From Candidatus Latescibacterota bacterium (GTDB lineage Bacteria; Latescibacterota; UBA2968; UBA8231), in contig OZ253462.1 of the NCBI GenBank assembly GCA_965261395.1, forward strand, positions 5,056,001 through 5,120,000: 64,000 nt of DNA, given 5' to 3'. Positions within the stretch are counted from its first letter, which is position 1; each line of letters opens with the position of its first letter. Made by a program: the position numbers and the translations under genes. Positions 989 to 18,424 of this stretch are shown here, one piece after another. The notes below the pieces were generated by a model. It saw nothing but the letters and a program-made list of their open reading frames with translations. It ran no database searches and was not told where the DNA came from.

Positions 989-1025
989 AAGGATATGCCG
1001 GCGGCACTAGACGGGATTACTTAGC

Positions 1026-1630
1026 CTATTTTCTAATTTGATAGTCATTCCATTTTTTAGATTTTCCATAAAATGTTTTTAATGCTCTCTTCAATTGAGG
1101 GTCATTGATTGCGTCTATCCAGACTTCATAGCTCGCCGACCAAACATCACATTCGTTTGCTTTCGCTAGTACACCATCCATATCTTTATCTTTTTTAAAT
1201 TTTTCCTCATACTGATTAAATCTATCTCTGATTTGTTGCGTCATAAATTTTTTATTAATTTGCTCATCAATTTTGTACTTCTCAAGTGTCTCTTCAGGTG
1301 CAACAACTGCGAAGAAAATTTTACAGGATGTGTCTTTTGTTACATAAGCAATACAAGCCAAACTGCGGCTTGCCTGATTATAATTTTTAGCATGTGTTAC
1401 ACCTTGTCCCAAATTACTCCCCATCTTCGCTTCAACGAGGCCAAATAGGTTAGGATTGTTTTTTAACTTGATTTCCGAGTTATATTCAAATTATCTTCAA
1501 TTGAAAACTTAACTAACAACCGAGTCATCCATCCCTCATTGTATATTTGAGTAGGATTTAAATTCGACTGTTTCTGATCTATACTATCAATAATTCCGTT
1601 TATACCGCACAATTCCGTGCGAGTTTCCAT
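1026..1630 (-). pseudogene. Low-GC hypothetical PD-(D/E)xK-like nuclease split across two frames
   Basis: ATG at 1630 gives METRTE...PTQIYNEGWMTRLL...KSS* (stop 1463). A second frame carries EIKLKNNPNLFGLVEAKMGS...YNQASR to stop 1026. Much more AT-rich than the flanks. Confidence 0.55.
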
Positions 1631-1661
1631 AATATTTATCTTTCGATTAAATGAAGTCGGA

Positions 1662-3716
1662 TTACTCCAATAACGCCTTGAGCAACGCATCTGGCACATC
1701 GGAATAAAACAGGATATTGATTCGCGTCGCCATGTCATCCGACAGTTCGAATAGCTGCTTTCGCGCCAACACCGGCATCAGCAGGGTATCTACCCCCCTA
1801 TCAATTGCGATATCAACGACGCTGACCGCATTGGCCAACGGTTCTACCGACCCTCCGAGATTGAGAGCACCGACAACAACTAGGCCACCTTTCGTACCCT
1901 TCTCAAGCAACCCACTACAAAGCGCCATTAGTGCCGGCAGCCCCAGCGCGGTGCCCCTATGATCATTATCCATTGCACGAAGCTGCACGGAAAACTCGTG
2001 TAAATGCGGGTCCCGGTCTCCAACGAGTTCTGCTGCCCGAGTATACAAATTCTGTTCCGCGTACCTGACGCTTTCACGGAAAGCAGGCGGGGCTGGGGTA
2101 TTCAGTATCCTGACACCGTCCCCTCTCCCGACCGTTACTTCAATACGATAGAGACTCGGGCCTGTTTCAGGCTCGCCAGGGCTAATGCCCCAAACTTGGC
2201 CGGGCGGCAAGGGATCCAAGTCAATGGCTTCGTCGCTGTGGAGTTCCGGCGTCGAGACGAACTGTTCGATGCCGTCCTCACCAATCGAGTAACTGAAATG
2301 AGTGTTCCGGAACTCGCTTTTGAATACCCGTTTCTGTTGTTCCTTGACCCGACGACGGGCTTCCAAAGCCATGCGAACCATATCTTCTAGCTCATCGTCT
2401 GGCACCTCCATTTCCGGATCTGGATAGAGCAGTTTCAACAGTCCGCTTACAGTCTTGTTGACGGCGGTAATGTCTCGTCCGCTCAGAGCACCACCATAAT
2501 TTACGCGCCCTTGCAGCACTGAAATGCGGCTGCCATCACGGAGTCGGCTCCAGCATTCGGACAGAAAATCAGAGACCAAGCCGAAGTGATCCGTGAAATG
2601 TTCGTTCGGGTTAAGTTTTGGGAAATCCCATCCCGGCACGTAGGCATGGATGCGATCCATGAACGCCGTATCTTCCCTCATCTCGGACGGCAGCGGGCTC
2701 AGGAGATGGCCGACGCGCTGTTGATGTTCGACATCGACATTCAGATTGCCAACCATCACGATGCCGCCGTCCGCGCGTATGCTCTCCTTGCCGCGAGAAA
2801 ATTCACCGGACTCCATGTAGCCTTTCAGGATGTTCACGCCATCCTTCTGATCGAAGGACACGCCAGAGATCTCATCGAAGCAAACCACGTCGTACTGACA
2901 CACCAGACCGCGTTGGCCAGAGGCATTGTTGACGAACATCTTGGCGACGGTCGCCTTGCCACCGGAGACTAGGTGTGCGTATGGGGAAATTTGCTGGAAC
3001 AGATGGCTCTTGCCGGTACCACGCGGTCCTAGCTCGACGAGGTTGTAGTTGCGCTCCACGAACGGAACCATCCGTATCAGAGCGACCAATTGGGCGCGCT
3101 CCGACAAGGCGGCCGGCTCTAAGCCTATACTGCGAAGCAAAAGATCCGTCCATTCCTCCTTGGTAAACTCGCGTCGGGCACGTTGAAGTGCATCGAGCAC
3201 ATCGGCTTTCGATAACTGAATTGCCCGGAGGCCGTCGATGGCAAATGGACGACCTCCCTGTTCCAGCGCGATCACCGCGTCATAGCCCAACGTCACTTCC
3301 GCATAGAAACCATCGGTCAACATGCGTTCATGCTGCTTGACCAAGTCGTCGTCTATCCGTACGCCCCTGATAGCAAGACTTGGCAGTTCGGCAATAAATG
3401 AGTCCGTTTTCGCGTCTAGCTTCGCCTTGATGATATCTATTAGCTTGATGGAGCCCTGTTCCCGAGATCTAGCTTTGAACAGTTCCTCTTCGCCCGTTCT
3501 GACGGTGCGATCCGCTAATTGACGCTCGACGATCTCCAGCCCTTCGGCGATTTCCTGCTCGTCCGTACTCGCGCAGTAACGCCCTAGAAGGAACTCAACC
3601 ACATAGGTCGGCACCGGATATTGGCGGCTGTACTTGCGCACTAGATCCTTGCGGACCAAGTAGCCGTCAAACGCCGATGCAGCTAAACGATCCAACTTGT
3701 CGAGTTCTACACTCAT
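1662..3716 (-). CDS. brxL: BREX Lon-related AAA+ protein BrxL
   Basis: 684 aa; VPTYVVEFLLGRYC N-terminus, Walker A GPRGTGKS, VCFDE, AFMDRIH, C-terminal Lon-like domain; ATGA overlap with pglZ. Confidence 0.93.
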   Translation of the reverse strand: MSVELDKLDRLAASAFDGYLVRKDLVRKYSRQYPVPTYVVEFLLGRYCASTDEQEIAEGLEIVERQLADRTVRTGEEELFKARSREQGSIKLIDIIKAKLDAKTDSFIAELPSLAIRGVRIDDDLVKQHERMLTDGFYAEVTLGYDAVIALEQGGRPFAIDGLRAIQLSKADVLDALQRARREFTKEEWTDLLLRSIGLEPAALSERAQLVALIRMVPFVERNYNLVELGPRGTGKSHLFQQISPYAHLVSGGKATVAKMFVNNASGQRGLVCQYDVVCFDEISGVSFDQKDGVNILKGYMESGEFSRGKESIRADGGIVMVGNLNVDVEHQQRVGHLLSPLPSEMREDTAFMDRIHAYVPGWDFPKLNPNEHFTDHFGLVSDFLSECWSRLRDGSRISVLQGRVNYGGALSGRDITAVNKTVSGLLKLLYPDPEMEVPDDELEDMVRMALEARRRVKEQQKRVFKSEFRNTHFSYSIGEDGIEQFVSTPELHSDEAIDLDPLPPGQVWGISPGEPETGPSLYRIEVTVGRGDGVRILNTPAPPAFRESVRYAEQNLYTRAAELVGDRDPHLHEFSVQLRAMDNDHRGTALGLPALMALCSGLLEKGTKGGLVVVGALNLGGSVEPLANAVSVVDIAIDRGVDTLLMPVLARKQLFELSDDMATRINILFYSDVPDALLKALLE

Positions 3717-6058
3717 GAATAACCCCCTACGATTACAGCCTGTTTTGCCAGCACATTACCGCCATCATCCAGTACGACGACCACAGCCGATTTGCCCTCC
3801 AAATCGTCGTCTTCCACTAGCAGGCTTGTCGAGCCTTCGGCATTCACTGTGCGCACACCAGTGATGCTAGAATCGGCATTGTTGACCTCGGTACGCACAT
3901 CAACGGACCACCCTAGCTGAGCCGGCTCGATCCGCACTCGACAGCGGAACCCAACCCAAGACACCTCTGCGATCTGTGGAGCCGTTGCTTCTGGTGCCGT
4001 TCCGCCTGTCACGCTGATGACCGGAATCAAGCCCTCTTGCAGACTCAAGCCGCCGTGTGCGTACTTGTGGCCTTCTGAGAAGCAGGCAATGCCAGGCGCA
4101 ACCGCGACCCGTTCCTCGACATTCCAGTTCCAGGGGACGGTGGGAACTTCGACATTGGAGCCCCCCTTTATCACGGCGCACCGAGCCCAGCGGCTCTCGG
4201 TCAGGTACCTCGGCAGCTCAACCTTCGGCAATCCGCCGGGTAGCCAGAGCCAACCATGATCCGTTACCACCCGAACCTCATCCCAACCCGCTTTGAGGAG
4301 GGACTCGATACGTTCAAGAAGCAACTCAATCTGACCGTGGACTTGCCCCGCGAGTTTGTCTTGCAGCGAGTGTCCCTGCGTGTCCAGATTGCCGCTCTCG
4401 GTCCAACCACGGCTTGATGGATCGCCTGTTTCATCCGCGCTCAGGTATTGGTAGCCAGCGGCGGTCAATAGCTTGCGGAACTGATGTGTAGTCAATGGCT
4501 GCCCTGCATCCGCGATCGCGGGAGAGAAGTCCTCTCCGAGCGAGAGGCCCTTGACACTCTGGGAGATGGGCGAAACCGCTGGCTTGGCGGTCGCGGTTAC
4601 GCTCGGTAGCCCCGCCCATCTAGTCTGCAGAGTCACTGACCAACCCTTGATGTGCATCCGTTCTACAAGTCGCTGGGAGATATCGAATCGAAGGCCATCT
4701 GCAAAAAGAATTACTCCACCTAACTCTACCACGACATCTTTTAGCCCCTGAGCTTCCTGCCCCGGCAGGGGGTCTCTTTCAGCCAGTTTCTGTAGGTGCT
4801 CGGCGGCAGACTCCAGCCAAGACTTGTAGATGACATCCAAGGTCTTGCTCACGGCCTGCATGTCAGCAGCCGTCTTCACCGTGGCCATCGCAGACAGCGC
4901 GGCAGCATCAACCTTCCAAGCTGTATCGACGTACTGATCCGCCATCTCCGCCGTGGATGCACCGCCAAGCCCCGTAGCCGTGTGCTCGGCCAGTACCGCC
5001 AAGTGCGCGAGCGCACGGGCAAGCGGAGCTTGCTCCAGCTTGGCCCAAACCCAATCTCGCCTAGGGCCATGCTGTGTCTCAAGTTGCCGTACTAACTCAC
5101 GTGCTTTGGCAGGCGTCGAATGTTCCAAGGCGAGCAACGCTTGCCGCAACTCCTGCTCTTCCTTCTCGTTCACTTGGGGCCAGGAAGAACGCTCTACGAA
5201 CAATTCACTCGGCATGGCCTTCCGCAAGAGTGCGGGAATTCCCGGATAGAGCACAGGAGACTCCGCGAACCGCCCCCACACCACTGCCCACGGGTCTTCC
5301 CGCTTGCCCAGCAGTTCAGCACCGACCAACGCGCCGTCCCTGTCTGGGTCGAACTTGTAATCATCTTGGCAGCACGATTTGAAGGCACTCCAGCGGCTAT
5401 CGCTCCATTGGGACTTAACCGTTTCCGGCTCATTCAGCCAGCGCAGCAGATCCCTGACTATATCGTCGGAAAAGAGCCGGTTGAAGTCCTCCGCCTCAAG
5501 ATGCTTGCCGGTTAGATGCTCTACTGCCGTCGTAGCTAACTCCTCCAACGCGCCGAGCATTGCCTGTCGAGTGGCATCATCGCGCGCGAGGTCCAGGCCA
5601 AGCCCTCCGTCCTCGGACACAAGAAATGCCTCGACCGTCCAGTCCTTGCCGTTCTTTTGAGTCCAACAGACCCCGCGATACTGAAGCTCGACCAGCGGCT
5701 TCAGGTTGTCTGGGCACTCCTGGACCGCCCGGAGCTTCTGCCGGCTAACGTGGGGGAGGTATAGAATCGGAGGATTCTCTTCGAGCCATTCAATGTTTGG
5801 CAACGCCCGGTCCACTGCACTTCGCAGCCAGATCGCCGGGCCGGTGCGTTGATCTGGCTGGTATTCCCCGAGCGTCAGGAGGTGCGGCAGCAGTTGCCGG
5901 AGTAGAGGAATAATAGGCTGCCACTGAGCCTCCTGATCCGTCCACAGGATGGCGCACGGACGCACGGCGTCATTTGGGTTGTACCTGACCGCATCCTCAA
6001 GGGAACGAATCAATGCCTCAGTTACCGTTAATCTCGAGTGGTCGGCCTGAATCTCCAT
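3713..6058 (-). CDS. pglZ: BREX-1 phosphatase/nuclease PglZ (type B)
   Basis: ILWTD and GPAIWLR near the N-terminus; alkaline-phosphatase-fold motifs ADGLRFD, LPSVTATAK, VTDHGW, HGGLSLQE. Start moved to ATG 6058. Confidence 0.92.
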   Translation of the reverse strand: MEIQADHSRLTVTEALIRSLEDAVRYNPNDAVRPCAILWTDQEAQWQPIIPLLRQLLPHLLTLGEYQPDQRTGPAIWLRSAVDRALPNIEWLEENPPILYLPHVSRQKLRAVQECPDNLKPLVELQYRGVCWTQKNGKDWTVEAFLVSEDGGLGLDLARDDATRQAMLGALEELATTAVEHLTGKHLEAEDFNRLFSDDIVRDLLRWLNEPETVKSQWSDSRWSAFKSCCQDDYKFDPDRDGALVGAELLGKREDPWAVVWGRFAESPVLYPGIPALLRKAMPSELFVERSSWPQVNEKEEQELRQALLALEHSTPAKARELVRQLETQHGPRRDWVWAKLEQAPLARALAHLAVLAEHTATGLGGASTAEMADQYVDTAWKVDAAALSAMATVKTAADMQAVSKTLDVIYKSWLESAAEHLQKLAERDPLPGQEAQGLKDVVVELGGVILFADGLRFDISQRLVERMHIKGWSVTLQTRWAGLPSVTATAKPAVSPISQSVKGLSLGEDFSPAIADAGQPLTTHQFRKLLTAAGYQYLSADETGDPSSRGWTESGNLDTQGHSLQDKLAGQVHGQIELLLERIESLLKAGWDEVRVVTDHGWLWLPGGLPKVELPRYLTESRWARCAVIKGGSNVEVPTVPWNWNVEERVAVAPGIACFSEGHKYAHGGLSLQEGLIPVISVTGGTAPEATAPQIAEVSWVGFRCRVRIEPAQLGWSVDVRTEVNNADSSITGVRTVNAEGSTSLLVEDDDLEGKSAVVVVLDDGGNVLAKQAVIVGGYS

Positions 6059-6063
6059 GGTGT

Positions 6064-7329
6064 TCACGATATATCCGCGGCCCAAATCGTCAGCATGAGC
6101 TCCGACTCGCCGATCGGGCGGTGCTCTGGAAGTTTACCGGATAGTCTTTCGCTGTTGTCCATGATGATGCGCACGCCTTCTCCACGTGTGTCCATCATGG
6201 TTCGACGATCCGTCGTCAGCCATGCCTTGTCAGTCGGAACTAGACATTTGGCGAGCAGACTAGTGATGATTTCATTTCGAGCCGATTGCAGGTAGGCAAG
6301 GTCCTCAACTGTCATCGCATTCGGGAGCGAGCCCGGGGAATAAAGCTCTAAACGGTCGCTGAACAGCCGTAACCGGATCTTTGAGCCGTGAATGGAATAG
6401 TCTCGGTGGGCGACCGCGTTGACCATAGCTTCGAAGACAGCCGTCATGTCAAATTGCGGTCGGTCCAGACGCCCCTGATCCTTAAAGGCGGCTGTCTTCA
6501 TGTTATTTGCCACGAACCGACAGGCTTCCACGACCTGTAAATCGAGTGGGCCAGAGATATCCGCGGCGTCGAGTTGATAGGGATCGGTGGATTCGTCGGT
6601 TCGAATATCAACTCCCCGATAGGAAACGGCCTGTACATAGGCATTGGGGAGCCATTCCCGGGGGTCTTCGGAGGCCATCAACACGCCAGCGACCGTTGGC
6701 CTCAGCGTCCCGTCGTCATCGGTACGTGCCATGTGGAGCTTGGACAGGAAATTCTCTCGCTCGTCTCGGGATCGAGAAGTCAGGAATCGCTCCCAAAGGT
6801 CTGGCTGCAAGTCGTGCAATTCAGCGGGATGAACGATTTGCTCGTCGAACCGGATGATACGGGTCTGACTGCGCTGCTGGAACAATCGAGCAAGGTATTC
6901 GGATGACATAACGCGCTTGGTGCTGCCGACGCGGTGCAGAAAACCCCCAGGGCTTCGATGTACGAAAAGACTGCGAGGCACATCAATCCTAATAACGGCC
7001 ACATCCTCGCCGGTGGTCGCGGGCAGCCGCAAGGGGTCAATGATGGGGGCTATGGGCGGATCGATGGAGTCGTGGCAAAGCTCGTGGACGAAACGCTCTA
7101 CCACGTCGAGATGCTGTTCCGGAATCCCCAGAATCTCACGTGTCTTGTCATGTACGCCGAGCACCAGCACCCCGCCGTGGCTGTTGGCGAAGGACGCTAG
7201 CTCATCGGCGAGGTCGCTTTGCCTTGGACCACGAATCTTGCTGCCGGCAAAGCGCACCTCCTTCAGTTCGAGAAAGCTGCCTTCGCCTAGGTGGATCTTC
7301 TCCAGCAGTTCTCCGCGTGTTGCAAACAT
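6064..7329 (-). CDS. Schlafen/AlbA_2 domain + HATPase_c_4 (RecG C-terminal-like) protein
   Basis: GEGSFLELK and ASFANSHGGVLVLGVHD (AlbA_2); EAMVNAVAHRDYS and RGEGV (HATPase_c_4). ATG 7329 lies 1 nt after the upstream stop. Confidence 0.85.
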   Translation of the reverse strand: MFATRGELLEKIHLGEGSFLELKEVRFAGSKIRGPRQSDLADELASFANSHGGVLVLGVHDKTREILGIPEQHLDVVERFVHELCHDSIDPPIAPIIDPLRLPATTGEDVAVIRIDVPRSLFVHRSPGGFLHRVGSTKRVMSSEYLARLFQQRSQTRIIRFDEQIVHPAELHDLQPDLWERFLTSRSRDERENFLSKLHMARTDDDGTLRPTVAGVLMASEDPREWLPNAYVQAVSYRGVDIRTDESTDPYQLDAADISGPLDLQVVEACRFVANNMKTAAFKDQGRLDRPQFDMTAVFEAMVNAVAHRDYSIHGSKIRLRLFSDRLELYSPGSLPNAMTVEDLAYLQSARNEIITSLLAKCLVPTDKAWLTTDRRTMMDTRGEGVRIIMDNSERLSGKLPEHRPIGESELMLTIWAADIS

Positions 7330-7330
7330 C

Positions 7331-10150
7331 TCAGATCTCTCGCCCCAAGCGTTCCCAGCGCCGAGCGAACGCCTCCCGTCCGCCCTCCATGACCCGACAG
7401 ACTTCTTCGCGGACTGCTCCTTCCTGTAGGGCACCGTGCTCAATGACTCTGCATTGGCCGCCGCTAAAATCGAAAGCATATACCATTTCCGCGTCTCCGT
7501 TGATCATCACATTGGGGTTATGGGTGACTATGATCAGTTGTCGCCGCAATTTGTTCTCGCGAATCTGTCGTACGACCAAGTCGTAAATCAGGTGGTTGTC
7601 CAGATCGTCCTCGGGCTGATCCAATACAAGGGGCTCATCGCCAAATGCAAGCAGGAACGCCAGCAGTGCCGCTGAACGCTGTCCTTGCGAGCCTTGGGTG
7701 ATGGACGTCCAATCACTGCCGTCCCCCTGGCGGCTGTACTCAATCCGCAGGTCGTCCTCTGGAAACCAGCACTGGATGTGATCGGCGAACTCCAGCTTCC
7801 CGTGCTTACGTTCAAGGTAGTTGCGAAATTGGCCGTGGAAATCAGTGCAAGTTTCTATCAGTCGCCGTTTAGCAGCATCTAGCGCCACTTCGCGATCTTC
7901 GTCCTGAGCGATGTCAAAGGCCAAGCCGCCAACGGGTTCGCCTCCTTCCTCCCGCAGAATGTCGTGTTCAAAACGACCATCTGTCACCTCGGTAATTCTA
8001 CGTAGGCTGTGCTCGATATGACGAGGATCAAAGCCGAATCCGACGACCTCAATTTTCACGAAGGTGTTGGTCTCCAGCGTTTTCGCAACGAACTCAGCGC
8101 GTGCCCGTGTGATGGCCTTGCGCGCTTCAAGCACTCGTTGCCACTGTTCTTTGTTGTCTTCGTTAAGGCGATCCCAATCCTGACGCAACTGATCGAGCTG
8201 CTTTAGTCGCGCTTCGAGATTCTGACGCTCCTGTACCAAACGCCCAAAGGCTTGCGGATCGGTCACTCCCTGAGCGGCGAGTGTCGTTTGAAGAGCCTTG
8301 TAGTCCGATCCGGCCTTCTCGGCACGCTGCTGCCACAGGCTAAGTCTTTCGTCCTTTCGCAGCTTCTGCACCTTGTCCGTAAATGTGTCGGCGCTACGAG
8401 TGAGTGCCCCCCGCATTTCTGCCACGAGCTGCTCGGTTTCGCTCCGCCAAGCGAGGGCGTCGCCATCCTGTGCGGCATCGAAGACGCCATCTGGCCAGTC
8501 GTCGAGCAGCAAATCCTCCGCCAACGCCGTAATACGTCCAAGCATTTCTCGCAATTGTTCCGAAGTCGTATCTATCTCCCGGCGTTGACGCAGTGCCTGT
8601 TGGTGAGCTTTCAGTACTTCAGCGTGATGTGATTGTGTGAACGCTGCGAGCTTGCGGGTCAAGTCCGTGAGCCTGCGTTCCAATTCCGGTCGCTCACCTA
8701 GTTTTCCACCCAGTTCACGCAGCCTAGCTCGCTGTGCTAAATAGGTGGTTTTCATCTCGTCGAAGGCGCGATGTAAACCGGCGACGTCAGCCGAGTCGTC
8801 GATGACATCGAGCAAAGCCTGCCGACTCTCGCCCGCCATGGCCGCAATCTGGCCCTGCGAAAGCAGCCGGATTGGGAAACGCTCGGAGTTCACCTCTTGG
8901 CTCGCAGCGGGCTGCCATTGGCAGTCCGTGTCTCGTTCTTCAACAACGGCCTCTTGACCATCTTGTCGCCAACGCAAGATGTGCTCTACACCGTCGCGCA
9001 TCAGCTCCACGCGAATCTCCGTAGCATCGCGCAACCCACCATGCCCATTGCGTCCCTTGACAGGTTGGGAAAAACTTTTGAACTGGCGATAGGCTTCTGT
9101 TTCTTCGCCCAAATGCTGTAACTCTTTATCGCGCCGATACGCGAGACGCAACGCATGGACAATCGTGGACTTGCCAGTACCGCGCCCACCAATCAGCGCG
9201 TTGTAGTACGGTGTGGGGGCAAGCCGTGTCGTGGTGTCTATACCCATAAATCGAGCAGATTCGACCTCAATGCCGGTGATGAAGTGAGTGGGCTTCCGGA
9301 ACGGATCGAACTCCCCCTCGTCATCGCTCCTTCGAATCGAAATTTCGTTGCCATCTAGGAGTGCGAGACGTAGCCCTTCTAATGTGGGCTTTGCCATCTT
9401 GACCCAAGCGTAACGAGATCCGGGAATACGCTTGCCTTGGAAGCTGTGGCAGTCACTACCGAGCACCCGCGCCAACTTTTTGACCCGTTTCTCGAAGTGC
9501 CTAGGGAATGGATGCCCCATGTCTTCCCACTCCATTGCCAGCAAACATTCAGTATCAAGTACTTGGCGAACCGTGTTGGCGTCGAGTTGGCACTGACAGG
9601 TGCCTGCACGTACAGCGAGAAGGCCCTTGCCGTTGCCATTTTCACCTTGCCGGTCAGCGTGAGCTGGGATCGGAATGCCTCCGGCGTCCCTAATTTCACA
9701 AACCACATCGGCTGCGCCCTTGCGCGTCACCCCGGCGCTGTCTCCCTTGGTTCCGTCATAATCCACCTGCCCCAGTAGAGTGTCGATGTGGCTGGTGGTG
9801 GCATTGGGGGCTAGGATGGCGAGCAGGTGGAATCCCCCCTGTACCGAAATCTCGACCCCTGGGAACAGCGTCAGTTCTCGAAACCCTTCCGGTGGCGATC
9901 CCCCATCGGCTTGCCTTTTCATCGCCTCATAAGCGGCTTTAAGGAGATCAACCCAGGCACCGCTGTTGTGGTCAGTGATCGCCACACAGTCGATTTCGGC
10001 GGCCATGTATCGGAGCAGCCATTTTTCCGGTGCTAGGTCGATACCCTGTTGAGCCCAGTAGGTGTCGGCGGAAGCCGGCGTATGCGTGTGGAAGTCGAAC
10101 TTCCACCAGCGCGATCCGGGGTAGGGCCAATCTTGCTGTGTGCTTGTCAT
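7331..10150 (-). CDS. PHP phosphoesterase + SMC/ABC-type ATPase fusion (TrlF family / Ppl-like)
   Basis: PHP motifs DFHTHTPAS, ITDHN, GVEI, HAD, GSDCH; Walker A GGRGTGKS; coiled coil; signature SQGQ; Walker B LVLDQPEDDLD; H-loop VTHN. ATG 10150 overlaps the pglX stop. Confidence 0.88.
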   Translation of the reverse strand: MTSTQQDWPYPGSRWWKFDFHTHTPASADTYWAQQGIDLAPEKWLLRYMAAEIDCVAITDHNSGAWVDLLKAAYEAMKRQADGGSPPEGFRELTLFPGVEISVQGGFHLLAILAPNATTSHIDTLLGQVDYDGTKGDSAGVTRKGAADVVCEIRDAGGIPIPAHADRQGENGNGKGLLAVRAGTCQCQLDANTVRQVLDTECLLAMEWEDMGHPFPRHFEKRVKKLARVLGSDCHSFQGKRIPGSRYAWVKMAKPTLEGLRLALLDGNEISIRRSDDEGEFDPFRKPTHFITGIEVESARFMGIDTTTRLAPTPYYNALIGGRGTGKSTIVHALRLAYRRDKELQHLGEETEAYRQFKSFSQPVKGRNGHGGLRDATEIRVELMRDGVEHILRWRQDGQEAVVEERDTDCQWQPAASQEVNSERFPIRLLSQGQIAAMAGESRQALLDVIDDSADVAGLHRAFDEMKTTYLAQRARLRELGGKLGERPELERRLTDLTRKLAAFTQSHHAEVLKAHQQALRQRREIDTTSEQLREMLGRITALAEDLLLDDWPDGVFDAAQDGDALAWRSETEQLVAEMRGALTRSADTFTDKVQKLRKDERLSLWQQRAEKAGSDYKALQTTLAAQGVTDPQAFGRLVQERQNLEARLKQLDQLRQDWDRLNEDNKEQWQRVLEARKAITRARAEFVAKTLETNTFVKIEVVGFGFDPRHIEHSLRRITEVTDGRFEHDILREEGGEPVGGLAFDIAQDEDREVALDAAKRRLIETCTDFHGQFRNYLERKHGKLEFADHIQCWFPEDDLRIEYSRQGDGSDWTSITQGSQGQRSAALLAFLLAFGDEPLVLDQPEDDLDNHLIYDLVVRQIRENKLRRQLIIVTHNPNVMINGDAEMVYAFDFSGGQCRVIEHGALQEGAVREEVCRVMEGGREAFARRWERLGREI

Positions 10151-13100
10151 CGTCCCTCGTCCTCCGCCCGGTCCCGGGCCGCGTGTTTCTCTGCTTTGGT
10201 CCAATCGTCGTTGACTCGTTCTCCGGTGAAGTTGCCGTTGTTCCAGAACCAGGGGAACTGCTCCTTGTCGCGCATCGGTTCCTTGCCGCGGTCCTTTTTC
10301 CAATGGATTTTCGGCGCGGTGCGGAGGACGCCGGCACCTTTCTTGCCGTCGGGAAGGTCTTTGGCCATGAAGGGGCGGATATTGAGGCGCACGCCGTCGT
10401 TGATGTCCGGCTCCCAGCCGATGGGTTGTTCCCTGATCGGCTTCCAGCGGATGAAAAGATCGCAGGGCGGCTCGCCTGCGAGGATGGCGACGAGCCGCTT
10501 CTGTAATTCCAGCGCTGCGGCCAAGCGGTCTTCGGCACCGCCCTCGCCACGCTTTACGCCATCCTGCTGGCGGGTGATCCAGTCGCCGAGATAGCTGTAG
10601 GTCAGCGACTCCAGCAGGCGACGACCCTTGCCTCCGCCCTCGGCCAGCTTGTGATAGTTGATCAAGGCGTGGAAACCGTCGCGTCTACGGCCGTCCCAGA
10701 TATGCCAGACGAAGGGACGCTGGTGGAACAGCTTGCAGTGTTCCTCAAAGAAACGGTTGTGCAGCCAGTCGTCTAGGCTGGGACTCTCTGTTGCGGTGAG
10801 CAACTTAGCAAGGATGTCATCGCTCCAGTCATCGCCCCAAGCGGCCTGCAACAGTTCCAACAGGCGTTCGTGGGCGGGACGCTCGCGCGCTACGGAGGGG
10901 ATGCAGACGATGCCGTCCTTGTCCTCAAATGGGTGCAATGCCGTTGTCTCCTCAACCCAGGCACGAGCCTCGTCGGCGAGTTCCATGTCCGGGTCGTTCT
11001 CCGCCGGCCAGCGGTAGCCGAGCAGGCGGGCGACAGCGACTTGCAGGACGGTCGGATCTGTGCGGCGCGGGCCGTGAGTGGTCCACTTTGTGCCTTCGTC
11101 CCAGATCACTGAGCCGCAGGGGTGGCCGTGGAAGATCCATTGGGTGGGATCGTCGGAATAAGGCTTGGGCAACCCGTTGGGATAGCGTTCTGCGGCGACC
11201 TGGGTCCAGCGTTTGAGGTCGAAGGGGACCTTGACCAGAGTGGCATTTGTGACGTTCAGCTTCTGATCAATCCGCCGCACTGCTTCGTTGTATTCGGGCG
11301 AGGAGCAGAAGCACCAGATGGCAGGGACGTGGCATTCATCATAGGGAATGATGGTTGCCACATTTTGGTGAAACCTCTCCTTGCCATAGTGATAGGGAAA
11401 TAGAACCCCCATCCTGTGTACAGCAATACCGGGTTTACCGAGAGCTTTAAGTCCTTTAGTTGGAAGAGCTGTTGGTAATGACAACAGTAGGCCTTTCCCT
11501 TGTTCCCAACGCACCATCCGCGACTGTCCTGCATACTCCTCCGTATAGACATCAGGAGTAGCCTGCATAAACTCCCATGTCTTTCTATTGATCTGAGCCA
11601 CTTCCCAAAAAGCCGCAACAAACATGGGATCGTCGCTAGTCTGAAGTCCAACTAGTCCATCAGCATACTGACTAAGTAGGGAAAAGGTCGTTTCATCATA
11701 TAGCGTCACTCTTGCATCAGGGTTCTCTAACTGCCTTCTCTGAATGACCACCACAAACTCACCACTCCGCAAAACATCCGCCTTTTCCGCCGCCGTGCGT
11801 GGAGTGCTCGCGTCAATACCGGACAGTTGATCTTCAGTCTGTGGGCGGGCGCGGGTCAGGGTGAGCAGTTGAACATTGAAATCCCACATAGGAGTCTGAA
11901 AAGCCTTCGCTCCGAGGCGAACGAGGAGATTCCAACGCACCTGCTTCAGTAATCGCCCGCGCTGCGCCTTGTAGCTGGTCAGGAACAGCCAGTTTTGTGG
12001 CATGACTATCTGGGTGACACCAACTCCAGCTTCCAAGCAGAACTCCAGACACCTTTCCAAGAATACATTCGCCAAATCCTGCTTCGCCCTCGCATATCGC
12101 CTCTCAGCGAAATTTCGCAGGCGTTCACTCTGCTTACCGCGAGCGAGATATGGCACGTTGGTGATGACGAGGTGATATTGCTGGCTCAGCAGCCGGGTCG
12201 CCTCGGTCAGCCCCAAGGCCGCGATGGTCGTCTCTTCCCATTCCTCCTCGCCAGCGTGTTTATTCAGCGCTCGCTCAAGCGATGGCTGTAGCTCGCTGAA
12301 TCCGGCCGTCAGCATATCCTCGGACACGGAAGTGGGATCAATCAGGCTGCCGAGCAGAGGCGCATCCTGAAAAGTGTCGTAGAGCAGCCCCATCCCATTT
12401 TCAATCCGACCATCACCCCCGGACAAAGCAGTCCATTGTTCCCGCTTACCGCCGACCGGCTGACCACACCAAGCAAGGTTGAATCGGGGCAGCGGCCGGT
12501 GATCGCCCGCATTGGGATAACGCCATGCTTCCATCGCCAGCGCAAAGGCGGCAATAGCCACGCAGCGCTGGTCCAGTTCCAGCCCATGCAGGTTGTCTCG
12601 CAATACGGCGTCAGCGGCCTCTGCCGCACTCAAGTCTTCCAACGCCATCCGCATCGGCACCAGCATCAGGAACGCCGCCACCAGAAAGTGCCCAGAACCG
12701 CAGCACGGGTCGAGCAGACGGAACTCCGAGAGATCGTCGGGCCAGCCCTCGAAACCGCCCGCGACGGGTGCGCCGTCCTCTGTCTGGCGCAGATAGGTGA
12801 GATCAACCGGACACCGCTCGTTGGGATGACGAGTCTGCCACCAAGCACCGAGCGAGTTATGCAGCAGAAACTGCACCATGTAGGGCTCGGTGAAGAGCTG
12901 GGTCACCGCCGGCAATTCGTCCGCCCCGATCTTATCTTCGGATTGGTTAACCTCATTCTTCCTCTCCGTCTGCCAGAACTGATACACCCAACCGAGCGAA
13001 TCGGTCGCCATGAATACCGCTGCCGGCAGACCTTCAACCAAGCCCTCCAGCTTTAACCGGTACTCCCGCGCCAACCGGACTTCCAACCCCGGATGCTCCG

Positions 13101-13536
13101 TCCTAAAAACCTGCGGCAACATGGAGTGAGCATACTGCGCCGCCAACTCCCACTTGTCGCTGCCTTTGTCCCTAGCCAAATCCTCGCATTCATCGAGCGT
13201 TACTGCGACATTGATCTCTGGTTCAATCAGCAGATCGTTCTCCGCGAGGAAGCGGGCAAACAACATGCTGTGCCAGTGTTCATACGCAGTCTCCTGCACC
13301 AAATGCTCAATGGTATGCTCTCCCGTGCGTGCGTTGGGACGGTCCCCAAGCTGGCGAGCATGCGCCCGCAGCCGCCGGCGCAATGTGCGCTGCTCCGTGT
13401 CCATGTGCTCGTAGAACTCGCGGTGATGCACGGCAAGCTCCTTCAATGCCGCGCGGGCACCGGCCTCCGCCACTTTGCGAGCCTCAATGACGGCGCGTTC
13501 GAGTTGTTGCCGAAGGTCTGTCGGAAGTGTCTGCAT
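10147..13536 (-). CDS. pglX: BREX N6-adenine DNA methyltransferase PglX/BrxX
   Basis: 1129 aa; TQLFTEPYMV, motif I LDPCCGSGHF, motif IV variant TNVPY, C-terminal RPFVWHIWDG and DINDGVRLNIRPF; lies between brxC and pglZ. Confidence 0.92.
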   Translation of the reverse strand: MQTLPTDLRQQLERAVIEARKVAEAGARAALKELAVHHREFYEHMDTEQRTLRRRLRAHARQLGDRPNARTGEHTIEHLVQETAYEHWHSMLFARFLAENDLLIEPEINVAVTLDECEDLARDKGSDKWELAAQYAHSMLPQVFRTEHPGLEVRLAREYRLKLEGLVEGLPAAVFMATDSLGWVYQFWQTERKNEVNQSEDKIGADELPAVTQLFTEPYMVQFLLHNSLGAWWQTRHPNERCPVDLTYLRQTEDGAPVAGGFEGWPDDLSEFRLLDPCCGSGHFLVAAFLMLVPMRMALEDLSAAEAADAVLRDNLHGLELDQRCVAIAAFALAMEAWRYPNAGDHRPLPRFNLAWCGQPVGGKREQWTALSGGDGRIENGMGLLYDTFQDAPLLGSLIDPTSVSEDMLTAGFSELQPSLERALNKHAGEEEWEETTIAALGLTEATRLLSQQYHLVITNVPYLARGKQSERLRNFAERRYARAKQDLANVFLERCLEFCLEAGVGVTQIVMPQNWLFLTSYKAQRGRLLKQVRWNLLVRLGAKAFQTPMWDFNVQLLTLTRARPQTEDQLSGIDASTPRTAAEKADVLRSGEFVVVIQRRQLENPDARVTLYDETTFSLLSQYADGLVGLQTSDDPMFVAAFWEVAQINRKTWEFMQATPDVYTEEYAGQSRMVRWEQGKGLLLSLPTALPTKGLKALGKPGIAVHRMGVLFPYHYGKERFHQNVATIIPYDECHVPAIWCFCSSPEYNEAVRRIDQKLNVTNATLVKVPFDLKRWTQVAAERYPNGLPKPYSDDPTQWIFHGHPCGSVIWDEGTKWTTHGPRRTDPTVLQVAVARLLGYRWPAENDPDMELADEARAWVEETTALHPFEDKDGIVCIPSVARERPAHERLLELLQAAWGDDWSDDILAKLLTATESPSLDDWLHNRFFEEHCKLFHQRPFVWHIWDGRRRDGFHALINYHKLAEGGGKGRRLLESLTYSYLGDWITRQQDGVKRGEGGAEDRLAAALELQKRLVAILAGEPPCDLFIRWKPIREQPIGWEPDINDGVRLNIRPFMAKDLPDGKKGAGVLRTAPKIHWKKDRGKEPMRDKEQFPWFWNNGNFTGERVNDDWTKAEKHAARDRAEDEGR

Positions 13537-13554: not shown

Positions 13555-16500
13555 TTAGCTTACCACGATGGGGCCTTGCTCGACCTGTTTGAGCAACTCC
13601 CGTTCAGTCTCGCCGAGCCAATCCTTGACGTCTTCCGGCGTGCGCAGCGTGGTTCTGCGGGGCTTGAAATGATGGGTTTTCGGCTCGACCAGTTTGTCGG
13701 CTCTGATGCGAGCGTCCGCAAAAAGCTGCGGCAAGGCCGCCGTGCGGGTTCGCCAATCATAGAGCGAGATCCGCCCGAGGGATTCCAGCACTTCCTGTTC
13801 GGTGCCGGTTGCGCCCTTGGTGACCTTCTCGATACGCAAATCCTCAAGAATTCGGTCGCGCTCGGCCTGCTCAATCTCCCGCCAACTCTCGGCGGATTCC
13901 AGTTGTTCCAGTTCCTCGTCATAGGTCGTGGAGAAGCCTGTCTCAGCCTCTACTAGGGCAGTACGTAGCGCGTCCACTAGCATCCTAGTGAGATCAGGTA
14001 CGGGGTCCGAATCGGCGAGCAAACTGCGGTTGACCGCGATAGCTCCGATCTGCGGCTGCGTCTCCGACGCCACATCCATCTCTTTTGCAGCATGGCTGGC
14101 TAAGGACAGCAGACGCTCGTACGAAGGGAGGCGCTTCTCGGCCAGATTCCCTGCCTTGGTCCAATCCTCAATGTTCTTTTGTAGTTCGTCGTACCGATCC
14201 AAGATGCCGACCAGTTGCTCATTGCCGGCAAGGGATTGAAGGTCTCGCAGATGGCTGGTGTCAGGGCGTTCGGGCAAAGGCGCATCTCCACCGGCACTCT
14301 GGGCGAGTCTGTCGAGCTTGGCCAAGAATTCCGCAGCAGCCATGGCTTCTTCGTTGGGCTTGCAGGTGACCCCAACGCTCCGGAACAACCCGCGTACCTT
14401 GATGCGCTGGCGGGTATCAATGATGGCGCTCTCGACCCGAAAATCGGAGACCGACACTTTCGCCTGATCGAGCTCCCTAGGCTTGAGCGGCGTGCCGTTG
14501 GCGGTCGCCCGCAAATGACCGGCTCCAAACAGGCTGATGAGGGCGGCGTCAATCGCATCGCGGGGCCAGCCGTAAGGCGGGGCCGAGAAATGGTCGCGTA
14601 CCTCTTTGCCCTTCTTTCCGGAACCTACGAAAGACAGGACCTCGGAGCAGACCCGGTAGTCTTCGGTCTTACCGTCGTAATCCAGTACTTCTAGAGGGTG
14701 CTCATCGCCTCTTCGGGCGCGCTCGATCACCCTAGACCAACGACCATCGTCGGCATCCCTGAAGTCGTGGAAGAGGCGGTCCAAGGAGGCGTTGGCTGCC
14801 TCCCTAATCTTGTCCTGCAAGGTGGCACCTAACCGTTCGGAGCCGCCACCCTGATAGACTTTCGCCTCGCCGACGATTGCAGCCACCAAGCTCCGCTGGT
14901 TGTTGGCGGCCTCGGTCCGCCGGGTCTCCATGCCTTGGCGGGCCTCAATACCTTCCGCAGTCGAAGGCACACCTTTGTATTCAAGCGTCTCATTCGCCGC
15001 AGCTTGGGCGGCGACCACGCGGGCCAAGTCATCAGCGCGCGACTTGGGCAGGAATACGTGGATGACTGGGCTGTCGGAACCATCGGCACGTGCATCAGCG
15101 ACGACGCTTCCCTCGTCCGCTCCCCAACCATCGCGAATCCAGACGGGTATCTCATGGGTTGCGCCCAGCGGCGGTTCCGCCCCTAAGTGCAAGGCGAGCT
15201 TTCTGGGCTCCTTGCACGTTCCATGCAGTAGCCTCACCGATCCGATCTCCTCCTGAACCGCCGCCCCCAACAACTGGGCGCGCTTACTGCTCATTTGCGT
15301 GAGATCGTTGACAAGCCTTGTCTGCCGGTTGCGAAATTCGTTCTCCCACTCGCTGCTCTCGCGCGTCTGCAAACTGTACTCGTCTTCAAGCTTCATCAGC
15401 GTACTGTCGGAGGTCAGTTCATCCAGCAATGCAGGAAGCCGCCCCCGCAGCGTCGCGCCGTCCTGGGCCAGATCCTTGACCAGCAGATCTGCCAAGGTTT
15501 CCTCGGTTGCGCGAACACCGATGTCGATACCGGCTTCCCGGGGCAGCTTGCGGATGAGGAAGACCAAAGCGCACAGACGCAATTTGAGACGCCCATCGGG
15601 GGTGCCGTCGTCCTGCTTGAAGATGGTCTCGTTTACCTCGCGTAGCAGTACGCCACTTCGCAGCAGGTTGGGAGAGATTTCCTCAAATAGGAAGTCGGCC
15701 GGAACGACCGTGCCGACCGGATCGTCGGCGGTGTATCGGATCGCGTCATATACGATGCGCAGTTGCGTACGAAGCTGTCCGGCGGTGCCCGCCCGATCGA
15801 CCGCACGCAGGGTATGCTCCCAGAAGCGTCGCCGCACTGGGAGCAGCGGGTAATCCTCCACGAGTACCGCCTCGTCCTCGCTACGAGGGCCGATCCGAGT
15901 GCTAACCAAGTGGCGATTGATCTCGCCGGTGTTGTCGTCCAGAGTCGATTTGACAGCGTTGGTGCGGTCCGGGCGTTTCGCCAGCACGACTCGCCGGGTG
16001 ACCACTTCGACATCGATGTCTGAAAGCTCGACGTTGACCGTGAACCGGCCCTGGAGACGTTGCAGGGCCGGCGTACTGGAGAGCGCCGTTTGCCCGGTGC
16101 CAAGAAGCAGTAGGCGGTCGCCGAAGCGTTTGCTACAATCCTCCACTACCCCCTGCACCTCATAGGAACGGCTGCTATCCTCACCGATGTACTGCTGCAC
16201 CTCGTCTAGGATTATAACGGTGCAGGGCAACTCGCCCTCGGGTGCCAGGGTGTCCTGTAAAGCGGTGACGAATTCGTGGGTAGTGATGTCCTCCGGTTTC
16301 GGAAACTGGTCGCGCAGCGCGGCCCTAGCGTCCCTCTCGCTACCCGCAAAATCGGGATCAGTCGCGAGCAGGGCTCTGGCGATGAGCGGACTCACGTAGA
16401 GATCGTTCAACTCGCGCCGAAAGTCACGGCCTTCCGCCTCGACCGCGATGCGGACCGGGTCGTAAATGTCGTTTTTTCTAAGCCAGAGGCAGAATTGCGC

Positions 16501-17001
16501 CTGTGGGAAGCTCTCGGGAAGGCCTGCGGATTTAAATACAATGCCGAGCAAGGCAAGCCGTACGCTGTCGCCGGCCCCAGCACCGAGCGTACCTGCGGCA
16601 GCGTGAAGCCCATAGGAACGCCGACCGAGAGTCACGAGCTCCGTAAGCAGTTCAGTCACGTCATCCGGCAGCCGTGCAAGACCCCGGGCACTGGCACCAT
16701 CTTCCGGAAAATGGTAGTCAATCCACAGAAAGCGTAGCATCTTCGCCAAGTGCGATTTGCCGCTGCCAAAGAATCCGCTCACCCAAGCCGCTGGCTGCTC
16801 GGGCTGGCCCTGGTTGCTGAGGTAGGAATCGAGGATGCGGACGAGACCCCTCCGGTATTCCCCTTCGCAGACGAAATGCTCAAGTTCGAAACGCAAGGTG
16901 CGGCGTTCGTCCTCGTCTAAGGCGTCTGTCATCGTGGCAACGCCGTTGTTCAGCAGCGTGATCTCGCTGGGGTCCCGTTGGTAGATTTCCCGATTTTTCA
17001 T
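13555..17001 (-). CDS. brxC: BREX P-loop ATPase BrxC
   Basis: WVSGFFGSGKSH Walker A, IILDEVQQY Walker B, PPYGWP motif; ATG 17001 overlaps the brxB stop (ATGA). Confidence 0.92.
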   Translation of the reverse strand: MKNREIYQRDPSEITLLNNGVATMTDALDEDERRTLRFELEHFVCEGEYRRGLVRILDSYLSNQGQPEQPAAWVSGFFGSGKSHLAKMLRFLWIDYHFPEDGASARGLARLPDDVTELLTELVTLGRRSYGLHAAAGTLGAGAGDSVRLALLGIVFKSAGLPESFPQAQFCLWLRKNDIYDPVRIAVEAEGRDFRRELNDLYVSPLIARALLATDPDFAGSERDARAALRDQFPKPEDITTHEFVTALQDTLAPEGELPCTVIILDEVQQYIGEDSSRSYEVQGVVEDCSKRFGDRLLLLGTGQTALSSTPALQRLQGRFTVNVELSDIDVEVVTRRVVLAKRPDRTNAVKSTLDDNTGEINRHLVSTRIGPRSEDEAVLVEDYPLLPVRRRFWEHTLRAVDRAGTAGQLRTQLRIVYDAIRYTADDPVGTVVPADFLFEEISPNLLRSGVLLREVNETIFKQDDGTPDGRLKLRLCALVFLIRKLPREAGIDIGVRATEETLADLLVKDLAQDGATLRGRLPALLDELTSDSTLMKLEDEYSLQTRESSEWENEFRNRQTRLVNDLTQMSSKRAQLLGAAVQEEIGSVRLLHGTCKEPRKLALHLGAEPPLGATHEIPVWIRDGWGADEGSVVADARADGSDSPVIHVFLPKSRADDLARVVAAQAAANETLEYKGVPSTAEGIEARQGMETRRTEAANNQRSLVAAIVGEAKVYQGGGSERLGATLQDKIREAANASLDRLFHDFRDADDGRWSRVIERARRGDEHPLEVLDYDGKTEDYRVCSEVLSFVGSGKKGKEVRDHFSAPPYGWPRDAIDAALISLFGAGHLRATANGTPLKPRELDQAKVSVSDFRVESAIIDTRQRIKVRGLFRSVGVTCKPNEEAMAAAEFLAKLDRLAQSAGGDAPLPERPDTSHLRDLQSLAGNEQLVGILDRYDELQKNIEDWTKAGNLAEKRLPSYERLLSLASHAAKEMDVASETQPQIGAIAVNRSLLADSDPVPDLTRMLVDALRTALVEAETGFSTTYDEELEQLESAESWREIEQAERDRILEDLRIEKVTKGATGTEQEVLESLGRISLYDWRTRTAALPQLFADARIRADKLVEPKTHHFKPRRTTLRTPEDVKDWLGETERELLKQVEQGPIVVS

Positions 17002-17567
17002 ACCGCGTATGCCTCTCGATCCTCGTGCAAAGTGATCGGAACCGCGAGGTAGTTCCACCCGTCCCGAGCATCCATCAATCGATAGTTGTTGTTCTCGTAT
17101 TCTCCGGGGAAAAACACCACCACGCGCCCTCGGATATCCCGCTCGATCGCCTCCATGAGCTCCGATACGCGAACAAAACCAAACAGCGAGGCCACGCCGT
17201 AGATACTGACCACCGCGTTTTCATCGGCCTCGGGGACTTCCAGGACATCCTTTACGCGCCCGGCCACATGCTCCAGAAAATCGGATTCCAGCTTGAGCTC
17301 CAGATCCTCCGGTGATTCGAAATAGCTGTCGCGATACTCGGTATTGGCCATCCACTGAGCAAAGACGTCGGTTAGATCACATTCAATCCAGCCGTGGCCT
17401 GCTTCCTTGGTCGCCATCTCGAATAATCCCTTACGTACCCGTAGGCGTTTTTCATCTGTCTTGTCATAGACTACGAAGATAACCCGCTGGGCACCGGATA
17501 GGTGCTTTTGCCAAGGCAACGCAATATAGCGCTTGTACCGCTCCGCCAGTGTATCAATGTGACTCAT
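16998..17567 (-). CDS. brxB: BREX protein BrxB (DUF1788)
   Basis: 189 aa with VVFFPGEY...YRLMDARDGWNYLA C-terminus; immediately upstream of brxC. Confidence 0.85.
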   Translation of the reverse strand: MSHIDTLAERYKRYIALPWQKHLSGAQRVIFVVYDKTDEKRLRVRKGLFEMATKEAGHGWIECDLTDVFAQWMANTEYRDSYFESPEDLELKLESDFLEHVAGRVKDVLEVPEADENAVVSIYGVASLFGFVRVSELMEAIERDIRGRVVVFFPGEYENNNYRLMDARDGWNYLAVPITLHEDREAYAV

Positions 17568-18395: not shown

Positions 18396-18424
18396 ATAAT
18401 AATGAAAACCAATTTTCTTGTCAA
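18396..18424 (-). promoter_or_regulatory. Sigma-70-type promoter of the BREX operon, near-leaderless
   Basis: TTGACA-N17-TATTAT on the minus strand; the brxA ATG is 8 nt after the -10 box and there is no SD. Confidence 0.7.

Follow-up and report, generated by a model that had tools for sequence, protein, structure and literature searches.

A portable TrlF-TrlG cassette inside a type 1 BREX operon: a candidate DNA-end nuclease with a putative tRNase second layer

Introduction

Why would an intact type 1 bacteriophage exclusion (BREX) operon carry two additional genes in its interior, and do those genes serve BREX or act for themselves? In a 64,000-nucleotide stretch of the genome of a Candidatus Latescibacterota bacterium (contig OZ253462.1; hereafter, the window), the interval between the BREX genes pglX and pglZ holds two tightly packed extra genes, trlF and trlG. 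A reading of this DNA from its sequence alone, made before the present analysis, had suggested that the two genes may be a PARIS-like guard that triggers abortive infection when BREX is inhibited, and did not know them as a characterized system. Current annotation tools label the pair only as "Ppl" and "ATP-binding protein." Here we describe the two proteins, their distribution, and the operons that house them, and we suggest that they probably form a portable defense cassette that rides inside the BREX operon.

A gene pair of the same names is described in Photorhabdus laumondii. According to the accessible portion of Hapeshi et al. (2020, bioRxiv 10.1101/2020.06.02.129163; PMC7554251), the temperature restriction locus (TRL) of this species is an operon of trlR, trlF, and trlG, in which TrlF is annotated as a "histidinol phosphatase" and TrlG, a protein with Alba_2 and HATPase_c_4 domains, is mislabeled as RecG. 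Transcription of the operon is induced by temperature, and growth arrests at 36°C in a TrlG-dependent manner with no phage involved. Independent temperature-tolerant clones had mutations in trlG, including an IS66 insertion, and none in trlF; deletion of the trlRFG operon was viable. Phage defense is not considered in that portion of the paper (PMC7554251). A search of the microbial literature for TrlF or TrlG as whole words returned nothing beyond this study, and our search found no literature that connects Schlafen to Ppl or PHP. Calling the system uncharacterized is thus only half right: the pair already has a name, a genetic phenotype in Photorhabdus, and an NCBI family for TrlF, whereas a role in defense would be new.

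Results

Predicted identity of TrlF

Based on profile matches, motifs, and predicted fold, the product of trlF is a TrlF-family protein in which a PHP nuclease (about residues 14-290) is fused to an SMC/Rad50-like ABC ATPase, with an ABC head at about residues 300-445 and 790-939 and a long coiled-coil insert at about residues 445-790; it is a sister of Ppl and not Ppl itself. The NCBIfam model TrlF_fam_ATP (NF045780) aligned its positions 2-944 with TrlF residues 12-936 and scored 592.5 bits, above its cutoff of 350. The score for the NCBIfam Ppl equivalog (NF042955, Ppl_antiphage) was 517.9 bits, below the cutoff of 1000; the PADLOC model for Ppl covers TrlF end to end (3.2e-127). In Pfam, TrlF matched AAA_21 and SMC_N only. 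Because no Pfam PHP model matched TrlF at E ≤ 0.01, we base the assignment of this domain on NCBIfam, motifs, and fold.

The sequence-only reading had called the PHP and ABC motifs complete, and alignment with 23 homologs (63-90% identical to the window TrlF) bears this out. The PHP metal residues H21, H23, D29, H61, E100, H108, H164, D233, and H235 were invariant, as were the ABC motifs (Walker A at residues 321-328, signature at 821-826, Walker B at 841-848, and H877). AlphaFold2 (AF2) modeled TrlF with a mean predicted local distance difference test (pLDDT) score of 76 and a poor C-terminal lobe. Foldseek aligned this model with the heads and coiled coils of MukB, Smc, JetC, Rad50, and LmuB, and with the PHP phosphoesterase 2anu (E 4e-7; TMt 0.62). 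When the PDB was searched by sequence with TrlF, the single-sequence query returned nothing and the profile query returned just an SMC head (E 0.0094); no Ppl structure was recovered in this way.

The Walker B region of TrlF (residues 844-848; window 7606..7620) reads hhhhD-Q-P-E-D-D, is invariant, and was the search pattern behind the set of 541 relatives described below. In classical ABC ATPases, the catalytic Glu immediately follows the Walker B Asp. The native Gln at this position in TrlF might lead to slow hydrolysis or nucleotide sensing.

Predicted identity of TrlG

Judging from its domains and motifs, the product of trlG is a "Schlatpase," which combines a Schlafen/AlbA_2 nuclease domain with a GHKL ATPase and has no helix-turn-helix (HTH), much as the sequence-only reading had described it. 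Pfam placed SLFN_AlbA_2 at residues 16-141 and HATPase_c_4 at residues 315-407 (1e-16). The motif E16-x4-E21-x-K23 was invariant (64/64 and 81/81 sequences), and the Schlafen box at residues 45-49 (A45-S-F-A48-N49) was invariant among the relatives aligned. Within the GHKL domain, E300 and N304, which correspond to Mg/gamma-phosphate ligands, were invariant among relatives as well.

The AF2 model of TrlG (pLDDT 87.7) terminates in the GHKL fold, with no C-terminal HTH. In Foldseek, the uncharacterized protein 3lmm matched over the whole length (1.5e-19); the N-terminal domain aligned with mammalian SLFN14, 11, 5, 12, and 13 and with the SAMD9 tRNase, and the C-terminal domain aligned with histidine kinases and PDK. 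The PADLOC model of SLFN-pAgo type matches TrlG residues 43-356.

Conservation of the trlF-trlG pair

We scanned one genome per species with the TrlF alignment as query; this analysis identified 541 relatives, of which we retained the best 80 loci, each with 10-kb flanks. Phyla represented among these 80 TrlF loci include Latescibacterota, Acidobacteriota, Pseudomonadota, Bacillota, Chloroflexota, Bacteroidota, Spirochaetota, and Nitrospirota. A full-length TrlG is encoded on the same strand 3-31 nt past the TrlF match in 68 of the 80 loci. TrlG is missing in eight (L006, L007, L013, L034, L036, L063, L076, and L080); since just 263 nt of contig remain past TrlF at L036, the count of solo TrlFs is seven in 79 assessable loci. 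In three loci, TrlG is partial or decayed beside an intact trlF: at L003, trlG has an internal deletion (13478), at L050 it has frameshifts (3952-4601), and at L064 (12828-13172) it is truncated to 114 amino acids within an otherwise intact BREX operon. In the remaining locus (L072, 13094-15812), trlG is split by a Mutator-family transposase. The natural trlG inactivations at L072, L064, L003, and L050 parallel the laboratory trlG suppressors of Photorhabdus.

Pairwise distances among TrlFs correlated with those among TrlGs (Mantel r = 0.71), and none of 2000 permutations reached this value. With co-occurrence measured in this way, the data support the proposal of the sequence-only reading that the genes belong together: trlF and trlG are a conserved, co-inherited two-gene module. 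Besides its regular trlG, one locus (L017) has a second gene with AlbA_2 and HATPase_c_4 domains (8091-9320, minus strand), on the strand opposite to trlF and about 680 nt upstream of it.

The comparison extends to a TRL-type pair on a Yersinia ruckeri plasmid, which was named by Hapeshi et al. and stands here for the Photorhabdus proteins. The plasmid TrlG aligned with 28% identity to the window TrlG (E 5e-36), and the plasmid TrlF aligned with 25-32% identity to the window TrlF in two segments (E 4e-23 and 6e-15). This pair is distant yet syntenic, suggesting that TrlF and a Schlatpase have long been paired and that this pairing covers widely divergent clades.

On plasmids, TrlF was found in 472 records, mostly conjugative plasmids of Escherichia and Klebsiella, at about 52% identity; none of these conjugative Escherichia and Klebsiella plasmids carried a TrlG-like open reading frame (ORF) at E ≤ 1e-20. 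Just 11 plasmid records had TrlG-like ORFs, eight with TrlF directly upstream (including the Yersinia ruckeri pair) and three with no TrlF nearby. On the E. coli IncF plasmid pVCSW7 (L081, 296-7844), a DEAD-box helicase and an N6-methylase precede TrlF, TrlG is absent, and no ORF downstream of TrlF exceeds 103 amino acids. In phage genomes, there were no full-length TrlF matches, and the Schlatpases found there were only 25-28% identical.

In each 50-residue bin, 79-99% (mostly 96-99%) of the positions that paired TrlFs conserve are kept by the seven solo TrlFs, and comparison of these seven with 64 paired TrlFs identified no conserved position that is lost in the solos, and hence no TrlG-specific surface on TrlF. 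A complex prediction for TrlF residues 440-939 with full-length TrlG, in which one part of TrlF was modeled, gave a score of 0.01 (mark, 0.32), which bears neither for nor against a contact between the two proteins. Fused proteins offer weak evidence, because there is one plausible in-frame fusion, P0243 (985 amino acids; a protein cluster of 32 members), which joins TrlF 402-926 to TrlG 1-419, and the three other long proteins (P0244, P0245, and P0250) resemble chimeras of PglX, TrlF, and TrlG that arose by deletion.

Host operons and independence from BREX

Methyltransferase-containing defense operons house 37 of the 80 TrlF loci. Full BREX operons, with PglX upstream and PglZ downstream, account for 11 loci, and a twelfth BREX locus (L008) is on a short contig in which PglZ is encoded directly past TrlG. 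Sixteen loci are in Hma operons, where the cassette lies between the HmaB methylase and the HmaC ATPase (seven tight and complete, four on cut contigs, and five with more cargo); at L031, L038, L039, L043, L047, L066, and L074, the flanking genes are hmaB, encoding a DUF1156 methylase, and hmaC, encoding a DUF499 ATPase. Two loci (L009 and L026) have the order DUF499-DUF3780-[TrlFG]-DUF1156 methylase, with the cassette between DUF3780 and the methylase. Four are in type I restriction-modification (R-M) operons, including that of Moorella (L006), in which a solo TrlF lies between hsdM and hsdS. The others are Hma-like (two loci) and type IIG-like (one locus). A full or remnant methylase gene has its 3′ end ≤200 nt upstream of trlF, on the strand that carries trlF, in 27 of the 80 loci. 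The remaining TrlF loci are located among housekeeping genes, for example selA, infB-rbfA, and ychF.

In a FastTree phylogeny of 71 TrlFs, the BREX label takes seven changes (at least four of them forced by well-supported branches), the Hma label takes 10 (at least eight so forced), and the solo state takes six among its seven rows. Based on these label changes, the cassette often switches hosts, and TrlG has been lost repeatedly.

Three related loci illustrate how the cassette fares when BREX is lost; two of them, L001 and L003, are from Latescibacterota. The nearest relative of the window, L002, has the same BREX operon with trlFG at 90-93% nucleotide identity. At the same lptB-rpoN site, L001 (9868-14080) aligns just to lptB-rpoN and to window 10323..6062; it keeps the last 176 nt of pglX and intact trlF (939 amino acids) and trlG (418 amino acids) but lost brxA through most of pglX and also pglZ-brxL. 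L003 (9904-13940), again at the lptB-rpoN site, lost BREX likewise and retains stubs of pglX, pglZ, and brxL beside its internally deleted trlG. Similar BREX stubs occur at L004, L010, and L022. Survival of the cassette after loss of BREX in L001 and L003 argues against a function that requires BREX. The cassette can do without BREX, and in the explanation favored below, which we consider rather more probable than not, BREX, Hma, and R-M operons are places where it lands and from which it draws expression and layered defense.

Further cargo was seen beside trlFG in relatives. In the pglX-pglZ interval, this cargo is a Fic/SoFic-like gene at L015 (8778-9824), a HerA fragment and a KTSC-domain gene at L070 (8887-9968), a second PglX-like methylase at L071 (6129-9977), and about 2 kb of further DNA at L078 (14060-16198). 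Inside Hma operons, a GmrSD/BrxU-like gene follows trlG at L079 (5721-7544), and an ABC ATPase pair of HEC-02 type follows a solo trlF at L034 (12956-14718).

Organization of the BREX operon in the window

The operon is on the minus strand, with genes arranged head to tail in the order brxA, brxB, brxC, pglX, trlF, trlG, pglZ, and brxL, preceded by a sigma-70-like promoter match (Table 1). All six BREX genes are present with full-length PADLOC model matches, and the NCBIfam scores for PglZ type B, BrxC, and BrxL all exceed their cutoffs.

Table 1. Coordinates and supporting matches of the BREX operon features in the window
Feature	Position	Strand	Details
sigma-70-like promoter match	18396..18424	minus	TTGACA-17-TATTAT, 11/12; upstream of brxA
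brxA	17554..18387	minus	PADLOC BrxA 1.3e-92
brxB	16998..17567	minus	Pfam BrxB; PADLOC BrxB 2.5e-79
brxC	13555..17001	minus	PADLOC BrxC and NCBIfam BREX_BrxC matches begin at residues 20-21
pglX, BREX-1 adenine methyltransferase	10147..13536	minus	PADLOC PglX E=0, residues 1-1126; Pfam Eco57I/N6_Mtase
trlF (gene A)	7331..10150	minus	939 aa; coding 10150..7334, stop 7333..7331
trlG (gene B)	6064..7329	minus	421 aa; coding 7329..6067, stop 6066..6064
pglZ (type B)	3713..6058	minus	NCBIfam BREX_PglZ_1_B 932.7 bits; PADLOC PglZ E=0
brxL, Lon-like protease/ATPase	1662..3716	minus	Pfam, PADLOC, and NCBIfam matches; ATG overlaps pglZ stop

The gene junctions are exactly as the sequence-only reading had reported them. 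The pglX stop codon (10149..10147) and the trlF ATG at 10150 share an ATGA, a single base (7330) separates the trlF stop from the trlG ATG (7329), and a five-base spacer separates the trlG stop from the pglZ ATG (6058). The ends of brxB and brxC and of pglZ and brxL overlap too; brxC likely begins at 17001, which is residue 20 of its longest ORF, and its start thereby overlaps the stop of brxB. Based on these close or overlapping junctions, the block from brxA to brxL looks like one translationally packed operon. For trlF and trlG, a program-made ORF list had longer frames (trlF from a TTG at 10303 and trlG from an ATG at 7479); we preferred the shorter starts because homologs of 936-941 and 419-421 amino acids, respectively, align over 100% of the query. 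The match at 18424..18396 is likely the promoter of the entire operon, trlFG included, as it is the only strong match on the minus strand within the operon.

Beyond brxL, the window has a stretch of low GC content (1001..1738; 0.41 vs about 0.58) with two small minus-strand ORFs (1026..1424 and 1463..1738), neither of which matches Pfam or PADLOC. Homology between the window and L002 ends at 1655, which is the end of brxL.

Discussion

We favor, with a probability of roughly 60%, the explanation that a portable TrlF-TrlG defense cassette rides inside the type 1 BREX operon of the window, as a DNA-end nuclease with a subordinate tRNase that acts as an abortive second layer. In the window, trlF and trlG would probably be transcribed together with the BREX operon. 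By analogy with E. coli Ppl, we infer that TrlF recognizes DNA 3′ ends exposed during infection, and possibly falling nucleoside triphosphate (NTP) levels, and that its metal-dependent PHP nuclease would then degrade phage DNA. By analogy with SLFN-pAgo, Cash, and RorSlfn5, TrlG may assemble with ATP into an active tRNA nuclease, which would stop translation and growth as the abortive second layer. We think it quite likely that TrlF is an autonomous DNA-end nuclease, and a role for TrlG as an ATP-dependent, growth-arresting tRNase seems to us just as likely. A functional subordination of TrlG to TrlF is probable to a slightly lesser degree: trlG follows trlF, is translationally packed against it, is dispensable, and is often lost. 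No Photorhabdus suppressor fell in trlF, which is the larger gene, and trlG is found naturally broken beside intact trlF; restraint of TrlG by TrlF, or independence of the two, fits these observations better than obligate activation.

Several points weigh against this explanation. The census of 80 loci was anchored on TrlF and counted TrlG beside TrlF only. Adjacent genes that are transferred together could give correlated distances without any functional coupling, and the Mantel signal is explicable in this way. Solo and paired TrlFs have no distinguishing residues, and a TrlG interface has thus left no mark in the sequence. The mechanism of Ppl can be transferred by analogy only, because TrlF falls well under the cutoff of the Ppl equivalog (517.9 vs 1000). 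Finally, the absence of trlF suppressors in Photorhabdus argues against a need for TrlF in TrlG activation, and it fits two independent genes.

That last point leads to the alternative that two single-gene defenses with their own triggers, one a nuclease similar to Ppl and the other a Schlafen-histidine-kinase tRNase that acts alone, simply travel together. Ppl works as a single gene, according to the portion of the Ppl review available to us, and TrlF stands by itself on 472 plasmids and in 7 of the 79 loci that could be assessed, with no TrlG-specific signature; Schlafen-GHKL proteins, for their part, are very common without TrlF (60,692 proteins), occur beside BREX cores in at least 1017 taxa, and lack a nearby TrlF in three of the 11 plasmid cases. 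We regard independence as unlikely, however, since trlF is followed by trlG on the same strand at a distance of 3-31 nt in 68 of 80 loci of many phyla, and the pair recurs in the distant clade of Yersinia/Photorhabdus type. Whereas the other cargo of the BREX slot varies freely (Fic, HerA with KTSC, or a second methylase), the trlFG pair stays together, and one protein cluster has TrlF (402-926) fused to TrlG (1-419).

The guard proposed by the sequence-only reading was specific to BREX, and in that form it lacks support from the loci: just 11 of 80 (plus the one on a short contig) are in full BREX operons, L001 keeps an intact cassette without BREX, and TrlF is alone on hundreds of plasmids. 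The model can be generalized to a portable, host-agnostic guard, in which TrlF is an ABC-ATPase sensor that reads the state of the neighboring methyltransferase complex (PglX, HmaB, or HsdM), or the DNA ends left, and restrains TrlG until a phage inhibitor or heat disables the complex. The TrlG tRNase would then be unleashed by an anti-restriction protein such as Ocr, as PrrC is for EcoprrI and as PARIS senses Ocr. Location of 37 of 80 loci within methyltransferase-containing defense operons is consistent with this model, as are the 27 of 80 loci with a methyltransferase 3′ end ≤200 nt upstream of trlF and the N6-methylase that precedes the E. coli IncF plasmid copy; the combination of an ABC ATPase with a tRNA nuclease follows the logic of PrrC, and embedded ABC-ATPase systems triggered by anti-defense proteins are discussed in the portion of Payne et al. 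available to us. Even so, the generalized guard seems doubtful to us. More than half of the loci have no such host system within 10 kb, the L001 cassette is intact after deletion of BREX, and the same TrlF clades switch among BREX, Hma, and no host (seven and 10 label changes), which is hard to square with a specific methyltransferase readout. Furthermore, TrlF comes with a conserved nuclease of its own and can be found without TrlG in operons of Hma, R-M, and plasmid methylases (L006, L034, L080, and L081), and its match to AriA is partial, with none to AriB for TrlG. If this model were true, the pair would be a two-gene transferable analog of PrrC/EcoprrI, and temperature restriction in Photorhabdus would be misfiring immunity.

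We consider it very improbable that the pair is a physiological growth-arrest switch instead of an immune system, as was first proposed for the Photorhabdus TRL. The sole genetics on the pair, as given in the accessible portion of Hapeshi et al., do concern temperature-induced transcription and TrlG-dependent arrest at 36°C without phage. However, the pair shows a patchy distribution and horizontal mobility among phyla, it lies within BREX, Hma, and R-M operons and adjoins GmrSD, SoFic, and HEC-02, its proteins are kin of the proven defense proteins Ppl, SLFN-pAgo, and Cash, and the regulator gene trlR is absent at the window locus.

The favored explanation, a portable nuclease-tRNase cassette, would link three separate threads: the single-gene defense Ppl, the newly characterized Schlafen tRNases of bacteria, and a temperature restriction operon in an insect pathogen that had lacked an explanation. 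Should the two genes act as a single system, they would represent a common defense in two layers that combines a DNA-end nuclease with translation shut-off, given at least 541 TrlF relatives among species-representative genomes. A cassette that moves between BREX, Hma, and R-M operons and outlives its hosts is also a clean natural example that bears on the assembly of defense islands. For the window alone, the significance is modest, namely, a BREX operon with a known type of embedded cargo.

Comparison with known systems

The pair most similar in organization is the Photorhabdus TRL, which has a PHP/"histidinol phosphatase" ATPase gene followed by a gene for an AlbA_2 and HATPase_c_4 protein, in the same order and tightly linked. 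Whereas the Photorhabdus copy is located between polA and dsbA, the window copy is embedded in BREX, has no trlR, and has pglX overlapping the start of trlF. Among the 80 loci and two plasmids, small ORFs upstream of trlF yielded no conserved trlR-like family; the clusters consisted of out-of-frame or remnant methylase pieces. The TRL-type Yersinia TrlG (L084:6989-8134) differs from that of the window in having Gln at the position of the catalytic E21 (E-x4-Q-x-K). The N-terminus of the Yersinia TrlF (L084) matches the PADLOC candidate PDC-M49A (1.7e-20) better than the window TrlF does.

PARIS and PrrC/EcoprrI resemble the pair in joining an ABC ATPase with a tRNA-attacking nuclease, in acting as abortive backups (which are fired by anti-restriction proteins), and in their ability to lie within BREX or type I R-M operons. 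The label "PARIS-like" given by the sequence-only reading is nevertheless not supported: the PADLOC AriA model matches TrlF weakly and in the C-terminal ABC lobe only (residues 641-882; 7.8e-12), and no PADLOC AriB (Toprim) model matches TrlG. A conserved nuclease domain sets TrlF apart from AriA, and the TrlFG cassette is often free-standing.

E. coli Ppl shares with the window TrlF the architecture of a PHP nuclease with a Rad50-like ABC ATPase. According to the portion of a review available to us (PMC12904381), Ppl is a single-gene PHP-ATPase defense that is released by NTP depletion and 3′-OH ends and becomes toxic once RecBCD is lost, and phages escape it by disabling homing endonucleases of their own. 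That review and a citation of Xu et al. (Mol Cell 2026) describe Ppl as a single-stranded DNA 3′-5′ exonuclease gated by NTPs and 3′-OH ends. Ppl acts alone, whereas TrlF usually precedes TrlG and scores under the Ppl equivalog cutoff.

TrlG belongs with bacterial Schlafen proteins, whose Schlafen domains cut tRNA and lead to abortive infection in published defense proteins. The Schlatpase supradomain is the commonest bacterial Schlafen architecture (60,692 proteins; 34% of pSlfns). Schlafen-ATPase proteins beside BREX were noted in two 2026 papers; one of these refers to them as "Cluster 2," and the other, which counts at least 1017 taxa with such proteins next to BREX cores, regards them as backup suicidal effectors, with no occurrence of PHP or Ppl in its main text. 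The TrlG residues E16/E21/K23, the Schlafen box, and E300/N304 match the corresponding sites of RzAgo (SLFN-pAgo; bioRxiv 10.64898/2026.05.29.728809), Cash (PMC13462974), and RorSlfn5 (bioRxiv 10.1101/2025.07.24.666596): the catalytic residues of CbCash are E17, D22, and K24, and RzAgo has the motif E-x4-(D/E)-x-K and GHKL residues E314/N318. Among Schlatpases, ATP-driven oligomerization with tRNA cleavage is known for RzAgo only (bioRxiv 10.64898/2026.05.29.728809). In contrast to these proteins, TrlG is a stand-alone protein of 421 amino acids without an Argonaute, CARF-like, Ig-like, or HTH sensor domain, and its candidate sensor or regulator is the product of a separate upstream gene, TrlF.

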